From contig CAJVPI010000223.1 in assembly GCA_910592345.1 (NCBI GenBank), positions 1-41,242 of the forward strand: a DNA stretch of 41,242 bases. Direction: 5' to 3'. Below are positions 277 to 31,700 of the stretch, piece by piece (position 1 is the stretch's first letter; each line of letters begins with the position of its first letter). Under the pieces are notes generated by a model. It worked only from the letters and a program-made list of their open reading frames with translations, did no database searches and had not been told where the DNA came from. Source of the DNA: Paraglomus brasilianum. Its lineage: Eukaryota. The position numbers were made by a program, and so were the translations under genes.

Positions 277-1020
277 TATTATTTATAGGTTCAATTCAAA
301 TTAATATTCTACCCTTAATATTACTAATACAATAAAAAAACGTGGATCATCTGTTCCGGAAATTTTTTTAAATGCTCTTCGAAAGAAAGCAGACAGGGCG
401 AGAAAGATTTATGATTTTTTTTTTTTCGTATTAGTGATGACAAAATTCAACGGATAGTATTCATCCAACGAATTAAACGTTTCGGCAACATCTATTTCAA
501 ATTTAAGTTCGGATAATATCAAATATGTAGCATCTCATGTTAGAAAGTATAAATACAATGGTTATGTGATGGCAGAATCCCGAGATCGAGCCATAATGGC
601 GCATTCTCGAAGTTTTGCACTTTTTTTTATATGTAGTATTGTAAGGCATTATGCTTATTAAATAAATAATTAATAATGTTTACCCATAATAGGTTTTATA
701 TTTTAACATAAATACGGGTAGTTGGGTGTGATGTACTTTGATCTAATTTTCTGTAGCTACGGCAAAGGGATATGTGGTCGCGATTCAATCGTGATTGGTA
801 CATTTTCAGAAAATCGGGTGATCCCCTTATCAATTATCAACAATTACTCCCATGCTTTTTTTTTCTGCGAAAGTATACGCTATTCGTCTTGAGTAGGACA
901 TTGGCTCTAGGAATTCTTTATTTCTATCACTCTCGTCGAATAGTGTCGTTTTTGATTTCTCCGCCTAATTAATAATAAATATACTGTTCGTCATTCGTAA
1001 GCAAAGCCAAGAATAAACGC

Positions 1021-2299: not shown

Positions 2300-3134
2300 A
2301 GACAAGAATTGCATTACGTGCTTAAAGTCAATTTTGTATACTGTATATTATCTGTTTTCTTCAAACGTTTGAATAAAAACTTGTGACTCATGGTTTATTT
2401 ATAGCTTATACGAACTTACAGTATTAATAAAGAGTAATTAGCACAAGATGTTGATGTAGTTTGCGTGGCGTAGGGTGTCGATTTTAAACTAAAAGGCAAG
2501 TACCTTTGACATGTCTTACGAATTCTTCCCCTCGATAAAAACTCATTACTGTTTTTCTTAGCATGACAAGATGAACACTTCAACATTTTGTGCAAGCGAC
2601 AAGCTGATAACAAATGCATACTATTTGGAACGTGTTGTGTTTATTTATCTCGGCTTATGCATATTTACAAAAAGGGAAACGCATAACGATCTAATTAACT
2701 TTCCACATTTTTTGTTAATTAACGAAAATTACTACAAATTTATGTGTACACAAATACGTGCTATTATTACGTTTGTCAAAAAACAGACATAGATGAAGTT
2801 ATTTACTACTTGCTGAGAAAACTATTAGCGTGAAAGTATTAGACATTTTCTACTGTTCTACATATAGCACAAAAATGAGGCAAAGCCATCGCTTGATATA
2901 TATATAGTACGTTTAGTGTTTTTCTTTTGCCATTATCAAATAAACTGTAACAGACATAAATTTGACAACCATCGTTTAACTAGACAAAATAAATTTTTAA
3001 ATTTTCATAGTCATTTGACAAAAGTGTAGCCACGTGAGATCAATCACATAGAAAGATTGTCCGTATTCCGCTTCCAAAAATAGTAGCGAGAGGTCGGCAA
3101 TTCCGCAAGACAATTTCTGGAAATGATCTACGGA

Positions 3135-4135
3135 TCAGCGGCGGAATTTTGGGGGTCGCTGTGTGAGTTTTTTTACTTGACCAAACCTAGCTTTCAACAT
3201 GTGATTTCCTTCACTCACAATCTCTGTTAGTTTTTTTCCATATACCATAAATCCAAAAATGCAAAAGATGCCGAATGCTCCATAGTGTAATCCGTATAAT
3301 ATATTGATATATTCATTTAAATACCAAACTAATTTTTCACCAGTCTGCGACATTTTGACTTTGTTTTTTCATAAGTACATGTCCTATTAATATAGACGTG
3401 ACAAGTACAAAGCACAGGAATAGACATGTAAAAAAGAGGTATGCAGTTGTGATTGCGCGGAGTTTGGAAAGGTAAAGTGTATGCTTATAAACTGGGTTTT
3501 TGGAGATAAAAACGTAGTCGAGGGATTGTTCTTAGTACACAAGCAAGGTATGTTGCTACTGATATAGCGCCGAAATACCAAGAGATATTGTCTATTAATG
3601 AGCGAATAAACTATTGAGATTGGAACAAGTTGTAAATTAGGATTATGGAAATAGCGATACGGGCTATATATACGTGGGTGAATTTAGATAAATGTTAGTA
3701 GGTGTTTGTTGTTCAAGAGCAATAGATTACCCAAATGCTTTTACTCAATTCAATTACACTTACATCTATTCTATAGTATTTGAATAAACAGAAATCCTTC
3801 CACCGCCAGAAATCCACCCGGCGTAAAAAATTTAGATTTGGAATTGCAACAGAGTTTCCAGGCTAGCAGCCATGTAGAGCGTAGAAAAATAACTAGTGCC
3901 AAATATGCAGATGTTTTTGTATATTACTCGGAAATAGCGTCTTTACAATCTGTTAAATCGATGAGCCATCTGTATTTATTATTGGATAATTAGCTATTTA
4001 TAACTTGTGGGATACACATAATTGTTTATTGATTATTTTAATGCGGTCGGCACCCCGATCTGAACTACTTACGGCAATGTGGAGGTCCTCAGATGAGTTT
4101 GTCTGTGGTGATATTATTGCATCTTGGATCCATTA
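3135..4135 (-). pseudogene. decayed multi-pass (7TM-like) membrane protein gene
   Basis: Manual minus-strand translation across GT-AG introns gives GPPHC / WLIDLTDCKDAISE*YTKTSAYLALVIFLRSTWLLAWKL...AVEGFLFIQIL* / RIAISIILIYNLFQSQ*FIRSLIDNISWYFGAISVATYLACVLRTIPRL / ILYGLHYGAFGIFCIFGFMVYGKKL. Successive hydrophobic helices with several in-frame stops and frameshifts. Confidence 0.6.
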
Positions 4136-6220
4136 TTTGACTTTTGTTCAACTCTTTTTTCTTTAGACTGCTTAATACTATGTATAGTTTGATCCTGTGC
4201 GTTTAATATTATTACTGGCTGTGATTTCGCAATACGCCCGCCCGATTGTTACTGGTAATTGTCTATATGTAACGTTGTCGTTATTAAGCTATTTTGCTTA
4301 TAGTTTAAAGCGAAAGTAATTCCCAATTATGGCGTATCTAATGTTCTTTTTCTAATACTCAATTTCATCGATCGCTAATCGAAAGCAATTGCTGCTAAAA
4401 GGGCGTAGGAGGATTCTTTATAAATAAAACTAAGAGGTACAATTATTACGGCAATTTTATTGTCACTATGTGCTTATATTCCTTTTACACTTTTGTTTAT
4501 ACTTCTTCATGTCGTGTAACATGACGCAATTTTTTGATGTATCGGAAGCTGGAAAGTTTTGAAAAATTGCTCAACGAATTCGAATTATTGAAGAAATCTC
4601 ACTATCGAAGTGCGTTGTTAGCTGTAGTCTGCATGTGGAAAGAACAAAAGTCAAGTCTATATATGCCTTGTAATATGTGAGTCAATTGTTAATATGTTTT
4701 ATTCAATTCGGAATTTTGTTCGGTCGTGATGGGCATCAATGCCAAGAGGAAAAAGACTTACCGGAATAGATTAAAGCTTTTCAGGGTGCACATTTTTTCA
4801 CAGTTGTTAATTTAGTTTAGAAAAATTTAAACGGTAATCTGATTAAACTAAGAAAATAATTGATAAGATAATCTGTGACAATGGCAAATTTAAACCTTTT
4901 CGGAGAGTAAGTTACACAATGTAGTTATATATAACTATAAATCTATAACTTTCTCATTATTGAACGCAAAAATCCTGGTTTAACCATTTTGGCGAAATAA
5001 TAGGTCTTGTTGAGCCAGAATGAGATTGTTACCCTTTATAATAATAAACACACATTCCTTCAGTAAAAACTTTCCAGCTCATAACTTATCCTATTTAGCA
5101 ATAAATTTACAGTCAATACCACTAATGTACCACCACTATACTGCATACTCTATTTTGTTAAATTATGTAAATGTATTTATTCGAGATAGCTTCATCTTTA
5201 ACATTTATTCAATGGATAAAGATAAGTAGTATAGTATGCGCGAACAGTAGAAACACAAAATATACCAAAGTCATCATTAGTAAGATAACGCAAAATCCTA
5301 CGTGAAATAGCTAGTATTTTATTGGAAGACTGGAAAGCATAATATTATTTGTATCAAACACTTATAGTATATAAAAAGGAATTGTTATGTAATTGTTCCA
5401 GATAATGTATACAAACAATCAGCGGCGAATTGAACAATAGTACGTAAAGTAATTTAAATTCCATGTCTACCTGATTTGAGCAAACTGTCGACTTTTTAAA
5501 AAACCGGCATGTCAAAACGTTGGCCTTTTAATTAGTCCGTGACTGGGGTCCAGCCCTGTCTTATGGCAACCTTTATCGTTAAAATGTCTACATATTCCCC
5601 AAGTATGACAATAGTTGTCAATGCATATTTTTTTCTATCATCATACAGGTAATATACCTAGAGAGAATGTTTCATAATGATTGATACAAAGGTGCAATTT
5701 AACAACGTCAAGGGGACAGCTCACAACAGTAAACAGGTTGGCTTGGGGTTGTGTTACGCAGTTAATAGGTAACCTCGGGTGTATTTAACCTACCACTTGC
5801 ATAAAAAAAGTGAACTAACTGATGTCTGGTTAATTATTTAAATAAATTTCGACCGTTTAACAAACTAGAGGTACCAGCAAGAGGACATAATGCTACTTAT
5901 AGAATGTTATGCGCTTAATGTTTACGCTTAGTTAAACCGTAAGCGTCCTGCATTTTCTGAATAAAGCATGACCTACGCCAAAACCAATTTGATAACTTCA
6001 GATATAACTTCAAATATTTATTACAAATTTTGCAAAACAAATAACAAACTATATTTACAACAACAACATTGATTACAGAAACATGCGGTAAAGATAAATA
6101 ATTTTTTCCATTAGAATGTCAAAATTAATACAATAAGTAATTATTATTAAAACTAGTACGTTTTCGAGCCGTCCGTGACGTTTGTAAGACTTATCGAGTT
6201 ACCAATTTAGTGGCTTTCGG

Positions 6221-6346
6221 TCACATAATCGAACAGTTGCTACCAGCTGGACCGTCATTTGGATTTGATCCGTAATTCGTAACCTTTTGAAGGGTTTCGA
6301 CAATAGCGGCGAGGATATCGTTAGCTTGAGCGTTATTTCCGTCCAT
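6221..6346 (-). CDS. 41-aa CAAX-terminated peptide, candidate lipopeptide pheromone precursor
   Basis: ATG at 6346, TGA at 6223-6221: MDGNNAQANDILAAIVETLQKVTNYGSNPNDGPAGSNCSIM*. CAAX = CSIM directly before the stop, an internal Asn-Tyr, CAACATG start context, many C-ending codons in AT-rich surroundings, and an upstream TATA box. Confidence 0.7.
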   Translation of the reverse strand: MDGNNAQANDILAAIVETLQKVTNYGSNPNDGPAGSNCSIM

Positions 6347-6506
6347 GTTGATCAGTTGTGTAGAGATGTGGTGTAAAGTGGTTTAAAAGTTGATTTTGTT
6401 GATTGTTTAATTGTTTGATTGATTTGCTTGTTCAATTTATTTGATTGACTTCGTTGGGCCTGCCTGCTTAGCAATGAGGAGAGAGGGGAAGATGCAAAAC
6501 TTGTGC

Positions 6507-6513
6507 TTATATA
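6507..6513 (-). promoter_or_regulatory. TATA box of the CAAX peptide gene
   Basis: TATATAA on the minus strand about 160 nt upstream of the ATG at 6346, followed by a CT-rich stretch and an A/C-rich leader. Confidence 0.5.
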
Positions 6514-7691
6514 GCTTACTTATGGTGCACGTATTTACACACACTAATATTGTCTTTAATTCAAACAATAGATATCAACCTTGCATATACGAGTTAAGTT
6601 ATCGAATTGGATAGACACACCTGTGACATGATACAATGCATACCCTGCTTTTCACGCATGCTGCAAAGCAAATCTTGCCGTGCATGTGATGCTTATAAAA
6701 TCATTTGATGTTCTTTGTGTTTCGGAGGTATTTCGGGGATGCGTAAGCAACTAATAATATTTTAACACAGTTTTGCGTTATCGCTGCTAATATATTTTCG
6801 CTAACATTCAAGGGCCGAGTTTTGCCGATAATAATCTATAAACAATTTTAACAATGCTATTTCCTACTACATTACATTCAGCATTATATTACCCTCACAG
6901 CCATCCCAAGGCAAAAATTTTGGACTAGTTACTTTGACCCTTAAGATAATAAAATAAATAATGTAACAACTCAATGATATTAACAATTGAAGCCAAAAAT
7001 TACTAGGACATTCTAATTTAGAAACTAATAACAGGACTTTCCTCACTATCATCTATGTCGTAGTTGGAATTAAGTTACCTAATCGATCTTACAAATATTT
7101 ATTAAAATTCAAACTTATTATGACTATTGGCTGTGATGCGGACGTTGAGAACGGAAATCAGAAACTCAGGGGCGATCGAGAAATAAGCAAAGAAAGCTGC
7201 AGAACAAGAATAAATCTTGTGGCGCACATAGCTTGACTCCCTTTAGAATAATCTCTTTTTGTACGAACCGATGCCTATAAAGCTTTACCACTATAAATGA
7301 AGCAAGTCACAACTAAGGACTGCTGGTTGTAAGAACTGGCTTTGCTTTGCCCGAGAAAAGAGAGTTATAAACATTCGTACGCATGGTTTTGAGATTATTA
7401 CGATAAGAACACGCACGATATTATTTTGCAACCTCCGCACACGGTCATCTAATTTGACACAGCGCAAATAATTTCCATTTAATGACATACGCTAGGCAAA
7501 GTCTATGAAGTTAAACACCATTGTGCAGTGCAGCATGAGCATAAAATTACTAGGCATGCATTCTGGGAAGTCTAAATGAAGGAACAAATGATAAAATGAA
7601 AACATACTAACTAGTACGAATGCATACTCTTGTCACACATATTGTCACACTAATGCTTTTAGCCGAGTTCGTTTGCTACTTATCATAAAAA

Positions 7692-16410: not shown

Positions 16411-16483
16411 AGCGGCAGAGGCTTCGACACGTCTTGACCAGAAACTTGACAATTTATTGATTAACATTAATATTAACAAAACC

Positions 16484-16957
16484 ATGAACCGCAATTTACT
16501 GTTTCTATTCTTTTTCTTGGCTTCGATTTCAGTCATCAACGCTGTTCCGCACCAACTCAATAAAAGAGCTACCGAGTTCAAAAAATGTCCGCCAACTCCT
16601 GGCAATCCTGTTGACGTCACGGAACTCACGGTATCTGTAGTGCCAGATTCTATCGTTTCTAATCAAAACGCTACATTTACAATTTCTGGGACTGCAAAAG
16701 TGGATATTCCCACGGATTCCGAAATTTCGATCGTTTACAACAAGATTGATGCACGTGGGCATGTTATAGGCACACCCTTTTTTGCCTTATTTTGCGGAGA
16801 CAACGATTCTTGTCCAGTTAAAAAAGAAGATAAGTTTACTCGAACGCTTACAGCCGAAGCACCGACATTACCCGCCGCATATGCTGTGACAATCATACTT
16901 AATACAAGTGATCCAGAAATAGTATATGGCTGTGCACTAGCTATAGTCGGAGTGTAA
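16484..16957 (+). CDS. secreted ML (MD-2-related lipid-recognition / NPC2-like) domain protein, 157 aa
   Basis: The true start is likely the ATG at 16484 (MNRNLLFLFFFLASISVINA signal peptide). Then PHQLNKR (KR Kex2-type site) and FKKCP...LTVSVVPD...FTISG...FC....CPVK...YGCA, the 4-Cys beta-sandwich pattern. Confidence 0.85.
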   Translation: MNRNLLFLFFFLASISVINAVPHQLNKRATEFKKCPPTPGNPVDVTELTVSVVPDSIVSNQNATFTISGTAKVDIPTDSEISIVYNKIDARGHVIGTPFFALFCGDNDSCPVKKEDKFTRTLTAEAPTLPAAYAVTIILNTSDPEIVYGCALAIVGV

Positions 16958-26012: not shown

Positions 26013-28740
26013 CTACTGTGTGAACCAATTTTTAATCATTTTTCCTATATTCTTTTTCTTATTATAATAGCTTTCAAGATAGCTTTGTGCATCAACATTT
26101 CCTTGTTCAGCTGCTGTATGATACAATACAACTGCCTTTTTAAAATCTTTATCTACTCCAATTCCATGTTGATAGCAATCAGCTAGATTAACTTTTGCCT
26201 TAGCATTCCCTTGTTTAACTGCCTTTTGATATAATTCAACTGCCTTCCTAGCATCCTTCTCTACTCCAATACCATGCTGATGGCAATAACCAAGATTATT
26301 TTGTGCCTTAGCATTTCCTTGTTCAGCTGCCTTTTGATATAATTCAACTGCCTTCCTAGCATCTTCTTCCACTCCAATTCCATATTGATAGCAATAGCCA
26401 AGACTATTTTGTGCAGGAGCATTTCCTTGTTCAACTGCTTTTTCATATAATTCAACTGCTTTCTTAGTATCCTTCTCTACTCCAATTCCATGTCGAAAGC
26501 AATAACCAAGATTATTTTGTGCCTCAGCATACCCTTGTTCAACTGCCTTTTGACATAATTCAACTGCCTTCTTAGCATCTTTCTCTACTCCAATTCTGTT
26601 TAGATAACAATAACCAAAATTACTTTGTGCAGCAGCATTTCCTTGTTCAACTGCCTTGCGATATAATTCAATTGCCTTCTCAAAATCTTTCTCTACCCCA
26701 ATTCCAAGGCGATAACAATCAGCAAGATTATTTTGTGCCTTTGCATTTCCTTGTTCAACTGCCTTTTGATATAATTCAACTGCCTTCCTAGCATCTTCTT
26801 CCACTCCAATTCCATGTTGATAGCAATAGCCAAGACTATTTTGTGCAGTAACATTTCCTTGTTCAACTGCCTTTTGATATAATTCAGCTGCTTTTTTAGT
26901 ATCTTTCTCCACTCCAATTCCACGTCGATAACAATAACCAAGACCATTTTGTGCATTAGCATTACCTTGATCAACTGCTTTTTGATATAAGTCAACTGCC
27001 TTCTTAGCATCTTCCTCTATTTCAATCCCATGCTGATAGCAATACCCAAGACTATATTGTGCCTTAGCATTTCCTTGTTCAGCTGCTTTTTGATACAATT
27101 CAACTGCCTTCTTAACATCTTTCTCTATACCAATTCCATTTAGATAGCAATCAGCAAGATTATTTTGTGCATTAGCATTACCTTGATCAACTGCCTTTTG
27201 ATATAAGTCAACTGCCTTCTTGGTATCTTCCTCTATTCCAATTCCATATTGATAGCAATAGCCAAGACTATTTTGTGCAGTAGCATTTCCTTGTTCAACT
27301 GCCTTTTGATATAATTCAACTGCTTTTTTAGCATCCTTCTCTACTCCAATTCCATGTTGATAGCAATGACCAAGACTATATTGTGCAAAAGCATCATTTT
27401 TTTCTGTTGACAATTCATACCAGTAGATTGCTTGATTAAGGTTCTTTTCAACTGTTATTCCATATTCATAAAAAAAGCCAAGTAACCCAAAACATTGCCC
27501 ACAGTCAACATGACCTTTGAGCCTCTTAACTGGAGTATAACTCTGTTGATACCATCCATTATGTGTTAACCAGTTTTTAATTAACTTAGCAATCTGATCT
27601 TGAATTCTTCCTGTTATATTTAATAATTCTCTTGACAGCCCATCAGTAAATGAATGATTATGATCTGAAACTGTCACTTGTTGACTCATTATGCTTAATC
27701 TATCAGAAATCTGCTCACAAGATGGTCTTCTCTCAGAAGTATCATCCCAACATTCCGAATATAAGGTGATATATTCTTCAGGAGTTCCTAAAACCGGAGC
27801 ATCTCGATTACCCATTAATCTATAAGTTACAATGTCATTGTAATGCTGGAGTCCATTACACGGTCTTCTTCCGCCTGAGATTTCCCATAATACCACTCCA
27901 AAGCTAAATATATCTGACTTTTCATCACGCTTAGTAGAAGGGTCAGATAAACATCTGGGGTCAAGATATGGAAGGGATCCCTTTATGTTGGAATGGCTTT
28001 TTTGTTGTAATATCAGATCAGACAAACCAAAGTCTGTTATTTTCGCTATGCCGGCATCGATCAATATATTATGTGAAGACTAATAATAAAGTTGTCAATT
28101 ATTATAGAACGTTCTGAACATATAGTATTATTTCAGTTATAATTACCAAGTCTTTATGTAAAATACGACGTTCGTGAAGATATCTCAAGCCATTAATGAT
28201 ATTGATACCAAGCTTGCATTTCGTAGGCCAGTCCAGTTCAACAGATGGATCCGATAAGTAAGATCGTAATGAACCACCGTCAGCGTACTTGAAGACCATT
28301 ACATATCTGTTAAGCGTATCTATGAATTGAGCTTCTGTTAATGTATGTAATAATTAAGTGTGCCTCCTCTAACCTCCTCAATGCTGACCTTTACTCACTC
28401 CAAGAAATCGAATTACGTTGGGATGATCATCGACTCTGCGATGAATCTTAAGCTAAAAGTATCGTTGGGTGATTTAAGTAAAGCAGTAAATTCAATACAA
28501 AGTTGCCATTACATTACCAACCTCCTTGACAAAATTTTCGATCTCATCTTCGTTTTGTGAATGCAAAAGTTTGTATGCCACCATTCTACCAAGTGACTTC
28601 ACTTTAGCTTTAAAAACCGCTCCATATCCTCCGCCACCGATGTATACGACGTCAATAAAGTCATCGAACGAATAAAACCGAATGCTTCCATCTTCAATAT
28701 TCTCGCTTAACCATTTTTTATCAGACTGACTTGAGGCCAT
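26013..28740 (-). CDS. tyrosine-kinase-like protein kinase with 13 C-terminal Sel1-like repeats (4 exons)
   Basis: Exons 28740-28522, 28452-28389, 28319-28147 and 28079-26013 splice in frame via GT-AG. Motifs GGGGYGAV, VAYK, HPNVIRFLG, HKDLSSHNIL, DFG, GSLPYLDP, KSDIFSFG. Then 36-aa repeats AQ..LGYCY..GIGVEKD.KKAVELYQKA.EQGN. Confidence 0.92.
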
Positions 28741-31700
28741 GTTTGTTGCTGTTATTACAATGACTCGCACTCACTTTGAGTCAAGCCTTTCGGAGTAGAG
28801 TGACCGATAAACCACTGCGCACTTTTCGGATCATTCCAAGTTTCTTCTTTTTATTCGTCTATATTCCGATAATTCGGTCCGGTAATTCCCCCGAAATTGG
28901 TTGTGATTTGTGGGATATATATATTTTCCGTAACCCAATTTATTTTTTCACACGGGGATGCAACAAATACATGATTATGATTGTTTGTTTACACGATGTG
29001 TGCCACAATAACAAGATGTAGTTAAACATTATTAACATGATCACTAATCGATTTTCGCATTTTCCTATATTTACCCGTTGATTCTTCAAGCTGACGAGTT
29101 TACAGCTCCACCATCATCGCAATCATTCCACATTCCATTCTTGATCTTTTCGTCCGAGATGATACTTGCCCAGCCTTATAACTCTTCAATACCTCATATA
29201 TCGGTGTTTTTCTGAAAAATTTGCGTATATTTCATAAAGAAGACTATGCTCAATTTCCACGATGTACCATGTGCCAAAACGAATCCTTTGTAGAGTATTG
29301 ATCACTCGCTGGTTAAATGGTATATTGTAGAAAAACTTACTCTACTCTGCCTTTCTTGTAAAAACTTGATGTATCCACTGGCAATCGTTGGTGTTGTTCA
29401 TTTTTGCATTATGCTTGTGATTGGCTCCAATGTGGAATAATAAGCGGACGAATAAGGATTACTTCGTTACTTCGCATTTGCTCGCAACATATGTGATAAC
29501 GAATCCCCCCCCCGGAAATCTCGCACGTCTTTCTTGATAAAATACATAATGAAGATGTCCATTACTTCCGTTTAGCTATAATATAGGTTTCTCCAAGGAG
29601 AAAATGAATGCCAAATACTACTTGTTATGTTTCTAATAAATTACAAACCAATATACAAAAAAAACGATTATATATACAGTACATTTAACACCTATATACT
29701 AGTCGATTCTCTTTTTGCACAAAATATCGGTTACCGTAAATGCATTTAGCACAAGATCGACATAATGCCATTGTACAACATTTCCGCAATAATTTACAGC
29801 AAAGTAAGAAAAAATACAGTGTTGGTTCCTACTTATTGGTGTTATGACTATTCAATCTACTTCACAACTATGAATTCCCGATTATTATATCAAACCTTAA
29901 TATTTAAATGACGCTTGAAATGACTATTATAGATTAGATTAAGTGTAGTGTTTACGGTTTCTGCAAGTGCACGGTCTAATTTATATCAGATCGTTTACTA
30001 GAATCACAATAACTATAAACCTTTCGGAGATATCAATGTGTTGGCTGCAGGTAGTTATCTCCTGTTCAAAACAGCTGTCTTCATTCTCCCATATGATATG
30101 GCAGTTATTTTATTCGCTCTTTTATGCAACTCTCAACGACGGCTTAATGTTTAACCAGTGTTTTAACCTGCTAGAAGAAGTGCACTTGGCAGAATATCTG
30201 ACGCATAATGGCAAATGTTGCAAAAATATTTTAATTTTTAACACTACCTCCATCGTTGGATAACTACAAGTTACATGTGAAGATGCTAAGTACCACTATT
30301 TGACAGATTTATGGGAAGTCTGGAGCAGTGAACATTCACAACGAATGTTCAAACTATCTTTAAGTTCAAGGCTGTTAATCGAACATTTGGAAACGATAAA
30401 CGTGTACACCAGCTTTATGAGGCCCCCAACACCCAATTTTTGTATATATAGTAGTCAATTTAGAAGATATTATAAATGGCTTTAGTGACAACGTAATGTG
30501 TTATACATAGATTTACCAAATATAAAGATTAAGACTACATAGTTGCTGATAAATAGTTCATAGCTGTTGCCTCTTGATATAGATTCTGCTTGGAGTATGG
30601 AATATTCTGGTATATTTGCAGACATAAAGAATTATCTGATGAATAGACTAGTCATAATGAGAAACTTGACGCGTTATCAAAAACCACAAACACTGTAAAT
30701 AGAAAACTATTAGTTCGTTAATTATATTTTTAAATTATTAATTATTTCATGACTGCGTGTAGCACAACAGCTATTTGATTTAATTTTAGATGCATAATAA
30801 TCGACGCTATTATTTGTGCGATGAAGTAAATTTGATTCAGTAACGTTGTACTCGGTTTGTACGATGATTCAGCCACACTCGATTAGTAGAAATTGACGTA
30901 CATAATATTTCCTAAATAAGTTATTATCCCATTAACTAGTTATACAGTATGATGTGAATCAGAAGTAATATTATAGCTATTTATTTTTATCACTAAACAG
31001 CGATTGAATCTTGGCAATTCAACATGTCCAGGGAATATCGTAGAAAGTGTTCATATTTAGAGGGAGGCATGTTCATGAAGCATGGCATGCTAGTAGGCAC
31101 GTTTCAGGTATTCGATCAAATACAGAATAAAAAGGAAACGTGCAAATAAGTTTCGGTCTTCTCTTATTATTTGCAATTAATTACACGCATTGGCGACCTG
31201 TTAGTAGTTATCTCTGGTCAGATACTATTGACGATTAAATTTCACATATACCTACGTTACATAATCCCTTGCTAGTAACAGCAAATTATGGTGAACGATT
31301 GCTATAACGGATATCTCTTTTACTTAGTGATAACCATTGTGAATGTAGTTCTTTGTCGCCAATTATAAAGTATAATTTCGAAAATCCTAAGGCGTTAGTA
31401 GGCTTGTATCATCCAGGTCGATCTCACTACGAAAGCAAAATCAGCAAATAAATCTTGCTTTGGTGTGGTGTATATATGTTCAGATTAAAAGATATGGTGT
31501 TTACTTAAATACCATCTACTAATACTAAGTGTGATGGTCTTAGAGTAAAATTGATTTACACATAAATAATGGATGTGATAGATAATTTATATTATTATAA
31601 AGTAAATTATTCAATTATGTATACATTCTGTTCACTAGTTGTTTATCGATAATTAGTTATTAGCTTGCATACATATATGATTTCAATAGGTTATGTGATG

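Follow-up and report, generated by a model that had tools for sequence, protein, structure and literature searches.

Sex and hyphal partner recognition in arbuscular mycorrhizal (AM) fungi are a long-open question, and a lipopeptide that can be synthesized makes it testable without transforming the fungus. The locus described here raises the question of whether a 41-codon open reading frame (ORF) ending in a CAAX box, found in a 41,242-nt stretch of Paraglomus brasilianum DNA (hereafter the window), is a real gene and, if so, whether it encodes a lipopeptide pheromone precursor of the a-factor/M-factor type, as a first-pass annotation of the sequence had proposed.

The ORF and its probable transcript

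The ORF, for which no strand had been given, lies on the minus strand, reads MDGNNAQANDILAAIVETLQKVTNYGSNPNDGPAGSNCSIM-stop and ends in CSIM-TGA; on the plus strand, 6221-6346 is closed by a stop at codon 16. The elements that had been claimed to accompany it are in place, i.e. a TATA box of its own upstream (TATATAA, 5' end at 6513), a good start context (ATCAAC-ATG-G at 6346) and an A/C-rich leader, the 94 nt 5' of the ATG being composed of A46 C24 T21 G3. On the minus strand there is no ATG between TATATAA and the start codon at 6346, and an in-frame stop is found 12 codons above the ATG, the open frame being 6224-6382. The GC content is 0.44 in the ORF (GC3 0.40) against about 0.34 in its surroundings, and about 30-42% along the window. 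The features of the locus are the following:

6507..6513, minus strand: TATA box TATATAA, the sole TATA[A/T]A match on this strand within 6001-6600
6347..6480, minus strand: A/C-rich, ATG-free 5' leader; upper end placed from the TATA box, RNA contigs reaching 6387
6221..6346, minus strand: 41-aa CAAX precursor ORF, type A1; ATG at 6346, TGA at 6223-6221; covered by RNA contigs and matched by relatives
6275..6346, minus strand: pro-region, codons 1-24; polar start, predicted amphipathic helix and K-V-T-N end; varies between types
6233..6274, minus strand: predicted mature 14-mer YGSNPNDGPAGSNC, whose last 13 residues are the conserved core; putative cut site
6242..6243, minus strand: donor-like GT in the Gly35 codon; not spliced in the RNA seen; the P. 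brasilianum gene model diverges at the matching residue
6221..6235, minus strand: CAAX box CSIM and stop; CNIM and CTIM in relatives, with TGA, TAA or TAG as stop
6087..6220, minus strand: 3' untranslated region up to the limit of the RNA contigs (run X18 contig 6087-6237)

Concerning the chance expectation of such a motif, the window holds 337 short ATG ORFs (20-70 codons), 18 of which end in Cxxx-stop and seven of which pass the CAAX filter, compared with 0.86 per shuffle in 100 dinucleotide shuffles. Three of these seven are antisense to Sel1 repeats. An Asn-[Tyr/Phe] pair 6-14 residues before the Cys is present in one of the seven, the 41-aa ORF, against 0.03 per shuffle, and a plain N...CAAX ORF turns up 0.33 times per shuffled window; for yeasts, 100-700 N...CAAX candidates per genome are reported (10.1101/2021.09.28.462209). 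The motif alone is thus modest evidence, and the reality of the gene rests on RNA cover and conservation. As a side observation, the Sel1 repeats (at least 13) are fused to a kinase at 26013-28770 on the minus strand, and the antisense of this gene carries the three short CAAX look-alikes, a trap for CAAX screens.

Part of the region 5900-6800 is represented in 20 of the 24 sequencing runs listed, two of which are RNA (rhizosphere metatranscriptomes from two studies), and RNA for the locus comes from these rhizosphere samples only. Both metatranscriptomes have contigs over the locus (6087-6387): run X18 contributes 6087-6237 and 6220-6370, and run X20 a single jointless contig, 6168-6387, running from the leader through the ATG. 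The DNA runs X6 and X8 cover mainly 6374-6746, where the RNA contigs barely reach (to 6387). A 5.35-kb control, X20 against 2300-7650, returned three contigs, one being the locus itself, another a piece of a paralogue (6293-6348) and the last a 36-nt stretch that matches 5683-5718 with five mismatches; in this control, run on X20 alone, the silent flanks are uncovered apart from that poor match. The contigs show neither strand nor level, and RNA libraries may contain DNA, so we regard them as good but not final evidence of transcription. Run X21 has a single 34-nt piece at 6223-6256, and its missing remainder carries no weight.

Relative to the window, the contigs of both RNA runs carry a silent change at 6242 and the replacements T23K (6279) and N9K (6320). 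The two replacements separate the RNA-covered forms from the window locus, which is a case against the pheromone reading, and the silent change at 6242 abolishes the donor-like GT.

Precursor types and conservation

Whether relatives keep both the ORF and the CAAX end had been put forward as a check, and it brought out three precursor types with one core, of 40-41 (A), 36 (B) and 44 aa (C). Type A1 comprises the window gene and contig L001, which is the same locus with two silent ORF changes and 11 mismatches in 1025 columns. Type A2 has 40 codons, one codon being absent (P0003, P0005 and P0006), and is also present in the X20 RNA with a different 5' leader. Type B (L002:1054-1164) has its own TATA box (GGC-TATAAAA about 150 nt 5' of the ATG) and an A-rich leader; its peptide consists of an unrelated pro-region, K-V-K-N, the same 14-mer as the window and N-I-M-TAA. 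A second type B form, with Ser before the Tyr and an N-V-M-stop end, is likely carried by an independent DNA contig of run X6 that matches the core at 6243-6274 (one contig of depth 2, loose ends read by hand). Type C (P0009) presents a third pro-region, then K-K-H, the same 13-residue core and T-I-M.

The first part of contig L002 (1-880) has genes that lack introns and look bacterial (Ribonuc_L-PSP and DNA_pol_B_exo2 families); at about 880-890 the contig switches to a fungal-type promoter and the type B gene (880-1192). It is likely a chimeric assembly; type B is supported by the independent X6 contig. Owing to this bacterial-looking start, checks for a prokaryote or viral source matter: none of 30 pattern matches in prokaryote genomes was confirmed, and none of 142 in IMG/VR pointed to a viral origin. 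In the alignment of both promoters, AATATTAG stands just 5' of a GCTATA(T/A)AA TATA box (window about 6545-6552, minus strand; L002 about 882-889, plus strand), and could be a regulatory motif or an AT-rich chance likeness.

The searches yielded two of two candidates, four profile hits (two dropped), four of 115 candidates and two of 410 pattern matches in JGI contigs. The dropped profile hits, P0010 (5436 aa) and P0011 (168 aa), have no CAAX and no full core, their likeness being limited to short stretches. P0002, P0004, P0005 and P0006 were rejected in their form as longer proteins, which read past the CAAX through a Trp at TGA; we read this overrun as the work of metagenome gene callers with TGA as Trp. 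A collection of 15 billion proteins does not contain the window peptide, and short-query tblastn found no further copies in the window. In Pfam (E<=10) the window peptide had no match, and none of the four members searched matched a pheromone family; the ESM atlas, PDB (best E 0.21) and Rfam (no match over the ORF) gave nothing usable. No relative was traced outside Paraglomus, be it to Rhizophagus or to another named genus.

The core GSNPNDGPAGSNC is identical (13/13) among types A1, B and C, with 8/20, 6/25 and 3/20 identities in the pro-regions; in the between-type comparison the ranges are 12-13/13 for the core and 3/20-9/20 for the pro-region. All three types end in C-[S/N/T]-I-M-stop, and the C-terminal variation sits on the residue after the Cys, which is removed by CAAX processing. 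Between A1 and B, six of the 14 codons of the mature part differ (8 nt, including a Ser AGC/TCT switch) with no residue change; the stop codon is also different, as is the residue that follows the Cys. As 28 of the 126 single changes possible in this stretch are silent, six of six would have a rough probability of 1e-4, to be read with the fact that the search pattern behind L002 fixed V-K-N-Y-G-S-N-P, i.e. the first five mature residues, so that just four of the six silent codons lie outside the selected part. None of the remaining five reading frames is conserved between A1 and B. Exceptions to the conservation are P0003, with Lys for Asn at core position 5, and P0006, whose Tyr for Cys represents an allele, a dead copy or an error; among the seven proteins compared, one thus has Tyr for Cys and one is a mis-ended gene model. 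Altogether, we are nearly certain that this is a real, conserved family of CAAX micro-genes.

The sole named relative, CAG8618169.1 (P0008), is a 72-aa P. brasilianum model with 82% identity over 83% of the query, which makes Paraglomus or a near relative the likely host. The model matches profile residues 1-33, follows the peptide to G-P-A and then continues, before the CAAX, with other sequence, and the point of divergence is a donor-like G|GTAGC at 6243. These observations would suit an ORF that is one exon only, either a first exon spliced at the GT of codon 35 or the terminal exon of a larger prenylated protein, the latter having been named beforehand as what would overturn the proposal. 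Against it, the GT is gone in both RNA runs, the X20 contig crosses the site without a joint, type B has no GT yet keeps S-N-C-x-I-M-stop, a stop closes the frame 12 codons upstream, likeness between copies starts at the ATG, and a weak test found no longer relative among 13 candidates (proteins of 73-2000 aa, E<=10). A last exon is contradicted by the upstream stop, the unbroken RNA contig and the likeness that begins at the ATG, and the exon explanation as a whole is largely refuted and very improbable. Since RNA alleles and type B lack the GT, while conservation extends through the residues beyond it to the stop, P0008 was likely mis-spliced in silico, losing its CAAX end, and merits re-annotation. 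Annotation hides such genes, as seen in this model and in the absence of the window peptide from the protein collection.

An ORF that arose by chance in non-coding DNA, or that belongs to a repeat or non-coding RNA, would agree with the frequency of N...CAAX ORFs in shuffled windows and in yeast genomes (0.33 and 100-700, respectively; 10.1101/2021.09.28.462209) and with the repeats nearby (2500-4740). It is, however, hard to reconcile with core changes that are silent only, stop-codon swaps, a codon-sized deletion in A2, likeness limited to the ORF in a single conserved frame, the absence of an Rfam match over the ORF, and the flat, low depth of the contig that carries the locus (4715-7054), unlike that of repeats; we consider this explanation extremely improbable.

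That contig, an exact match in run X2, has a depth of 53.3. Run X2 is possibly the source of the window, hence not independent. A second X2 contig has a depth of 135.8; its matches lie at 6326-6346 and from 6256 downwards. The extra depth of 11.4 in one bin corresponds to 15 matching positions (6223-6237), and that of 80.5 in another to 106 out of 109 (6238-6346), which implies a copy that resembles the locus from the ATG as far as the first base of the stop and is one codon shorter, as in type A2; by this depth arithmetic, a second copy of the 40-codon form is likely present in the source sample. In the same run the stretch at about 2500-4740 is multi-copy (depth 130-780 against 53), and inside it lies a 72-aa ORF (3135-3353, minus strand) with a hydrophobic middle, a basic tail, no Pfam family and a TATA-like site near 3670. 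Another short multi-copy element is located at 7025-7060, about 500 nt upstream of the TATA box of the locus; runs X2, X5 and X21 show numerous loose ends there.

Likeness to known pheromones and proposed maturation

The a-factor/M-factor-type reading is supported, with the qualifications that the Asn|Tyr cut is not kept family-wide and that a mating role is a proposal. Of the three findings named beforehand as refuting it (a missing transcript, no relative with ORF and CAAX, a last exon of a longer protein), none turned up. A close layout is that of the Schizosaccharomyces M-factor (mfm1-3; six So-mfm), with precursors of about 40-44 aa, a CAAX end and several genes for one Tyr-start mature peptide (10.1101/366260, PMC2134810). 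In S. pombe, 453 mfm genes from 151 strains are reported to give one mature peptide, with changes in the pro-sequences (10.1101/366260); the CAAX gene family varies in the same pattern, which we count for the pheromone reading. Unlike M-factor, the predicted product is a polar 14-mer (vs a 9-mer), the ORF has no intron, there is no Pfam match and the host is outside Dikarya. The stretch ETLQKVTNY in the window peptide may resemble the M-factor pro-region, as had been suggested; in the literature text searched, the M-factor junction motif was not found.

The S. cerevisiae a-factor (MFA1/MFA2) is likewise of the 36-aa class with a CAAX end; a-factor itself has no canonical signal sequence and is exported non-classically (PMC2134810), and CSIM works in it in place of CVIA (PMC9231725). 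The differences are that mature a-factor, YIIKGVFWDPAC, is hydrophobic whereas the Paraglomus core is not, and that the Asn before the cut is not fixed across types A-C. Basidiomycete lipopeptide pheromones are generally polar, Gly/Pro/Asn-rich mature peptides that are not known to have a fixed Asn at the cut, and their genes usually adjoin the STE3 receptor in a P/R locus. Their precursors (Ustilago a1/a2, tremerogens, rhodotorucine A, Cryptococcus MF-alpha) are short CAAX proteins described as devoid of signal peptide (PMC2134810). In contrast to a P/R locus, the 41-kb window has no STE3 family match in frames of at least 70 aa, and the Paraglomus peptide is assigned neither to any of the Pfam pheromone families nor to the basidiomycete type with P/R linkage.

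By analogy with a-factor and M-factor, the 41-mer would be made in the cytosol and farnesylated on Cys38, SIM would be removed by an Rce1-type protease followed by carboxymethylation, a cut would occur at or near Asn24|Tyr25, and the product would leave through a Ste6-type ABC transporter as YGSNPNDGPAGSNC(farnesyl)-OMe, with a calculated MH+ of 1570.72. For a-factor itself, farnesylation, loss of AAX, methylation, a cut at N21|Y22 and export without signal peptide are described (PMC2134810). Yeast a-factor ending in CSIM reportedly mates as well as the native one and is cut by Rce1, and CNIM, CTIM and CNVM are prenylated according to three of four predictors and cleaved according to both that address cleavage (PMC9231725, supplement 7).

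As for the putative Asn|Tyr cut, Asn precedes the Tyr in the window gene and in types A2 and B but is not kept throughout the family. Directly before Tyr/His, types A and B have Asn, one type B contig from X6 has Ser, type C has Lys and the P. brasilianum model has Ile. The second residue before Tyr/His is Thr in the window gene and Lys in A2, B, C and the P. brasilianum model. In type C an N-Y pair also occurs four residues further towards the N-terminus, where a cut would release a 17-mer. The Asn of the window gene, 14 residues before the Cys, falls inside the range of a yeast pheromone filter (5-20 residues; 10.1101/2021.09.28.462209). The N-terminal cut is accordingly the weakest step, a product of 13, 14 or 17 residues being possible; by analogy the 14-mer, polar with a GRAVY of -1.2, is the likeliest, although not the sole candidate. 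The leader helices of types A, B and C are predicted to be amphipathic or hydrophobic (moment 0.41-0.57; 0.57 computed for the window peptide). The N-termini of A and C are amphipathic with acidic residues, and that of B has a 9-residue hydrophobic run (Kyte-Doolittle 2.96).

Candidate role

AM fungi are reported to have the receptor and the exporter of such a system. Halary et al. 2013 describe one STE3 and a STE6 but no peptide pheromone gene in Rhizophagus spp. and Glomus cerebriforme; the pathway predicts an a-factor-like ligand for the single STE3, with STE6 export, and the authors suggest that its gene may have been missed for its short length (PMC3834313). It differs from our case in that, in Rhizophagus/Glomus, no ligand gene was found, and the CAAX family is so far tied to Paraglomus only. 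STE3-like receptors are described as the single GPCR family with general conservation among fungi (10.1101/546531), and parasexuality has been proposed for AM fungi (PMC10013875). The co-inoculation study of Mateus et al., 2020, reportedly saw no induction of pheromone genes (PMC7490403). Le Marquer et al. report KEX2-repeat peptides, a different class, in R. irregularis, and pheromone chemistry as unknown in most early-diverging fungi (PMC6339444); outside Dikarya, the pheromones described are apocarotenoid and sesquiterpene only (PMC3834313, PMC6339444).

Taking these likenesses together, the product is probably an a-factor-class lipopeptide signal precursor working through Ste3. Its signal would be perceived by a Ste3-type receptor on a neighbouring hypha or on the same mycelium, feed into the G-protein/MAPK path reported for AM fungi and govern partner recognition. 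Within the a-factor-class reading, mating-type and non-sexual signalling (hyphal fusion, density sensing) appear evenly balanced. In asexual Fusarium oxysporum, autocrine pheromone signalling is reported to govern germination and hyphal fusion (PMC13097639). An identical core would be odd for a species-specific mating cue if types B and C come from other species, the M-factors of S. pombe and S. octosporus differing at 3/9 residues (10.1101/366260).

The same exported lipopeptide might have a target other than fungal Ste3, i.e. the plant root, bacteria on or inside the hyphae, or other fungi. Such a target would agree with one core in three very different precursors, with RNA in rhizosphere samples only, with receptor and mating genes not being found in the window, and with the predicted helix in all three leaders, a feature of leaders that recruit enzymes to small modified peptides. 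The window Pfam scan, however, shows no tailoring enzyme or transporter nearby and, to our knowledge, every fungal peptide with such a layout is a pheromone. Moreover, an orphan STE3 and a STE6 are reported in AM fungi (PMC3834313), and M-factor is likewise invariant within species (10.1101/366260), so that we judge a target of this kind unlikely. Another option is an intracellular, membrane-anchored microprotein, farnesylated with its N-terminus uncut, whose helix binds a partner in the style of a minimal G-protein gamma. Helix, polar linker and CAAX, the variable residue at the supposed cut site and the hydrophobic run of type B would all be accommodated, but conservation is lowest in the helix and highest in the polar linker, opposite to what a helix-binding adaptor would need, and neither Pfam (E<=10) nor the atlas or PDB gave a usable match; this option is quite improbable.

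Returning to the Ste3-directed signal, we lean slightly towards reading the family as the first one of peptide pheromones from outside Dikarya, with a farnesylated product that is the ligand of the orphan AM-fungal Ste3 and serves mate or fusion-partner recognition. If true, peptide pheromones would extend outside Dikarya, lipopeptide-Ste3 signalling would date to the common ancestor of Glomeromycota and Dikarya, the receptor reported in supposedly asexual AM fungi would gain its missing partner, and a synthetic 14-mer would offer a means of inducing their sexual or fusion programme, which has never been seen. The literature searched, with little coverage of subscription journals and bioRxiv supplements, contains neither the core motifs nor any description of a CAAX pheromone gene from AM fungi; an earlier report may exist.

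Finally, a Pfam scan of all 88 frames of at least 70 aa in the 41-kb window, where the gene lies 6.2 kb from the start, found no STE3, homeodomain, HMG or ABC family. It identified TPR, Sel1 plus kinase, fungal kinase, ML-domain and AAA-ATPase-like genes, a set which we take to be typical of Glomeromycotina. The ML-domain (MD-2-like lipid-binding) protein is encoded by a single frame at 16454-16957 on the plus strand and has a hydrophobic N-terminus; this family is expanded in AM fungi.
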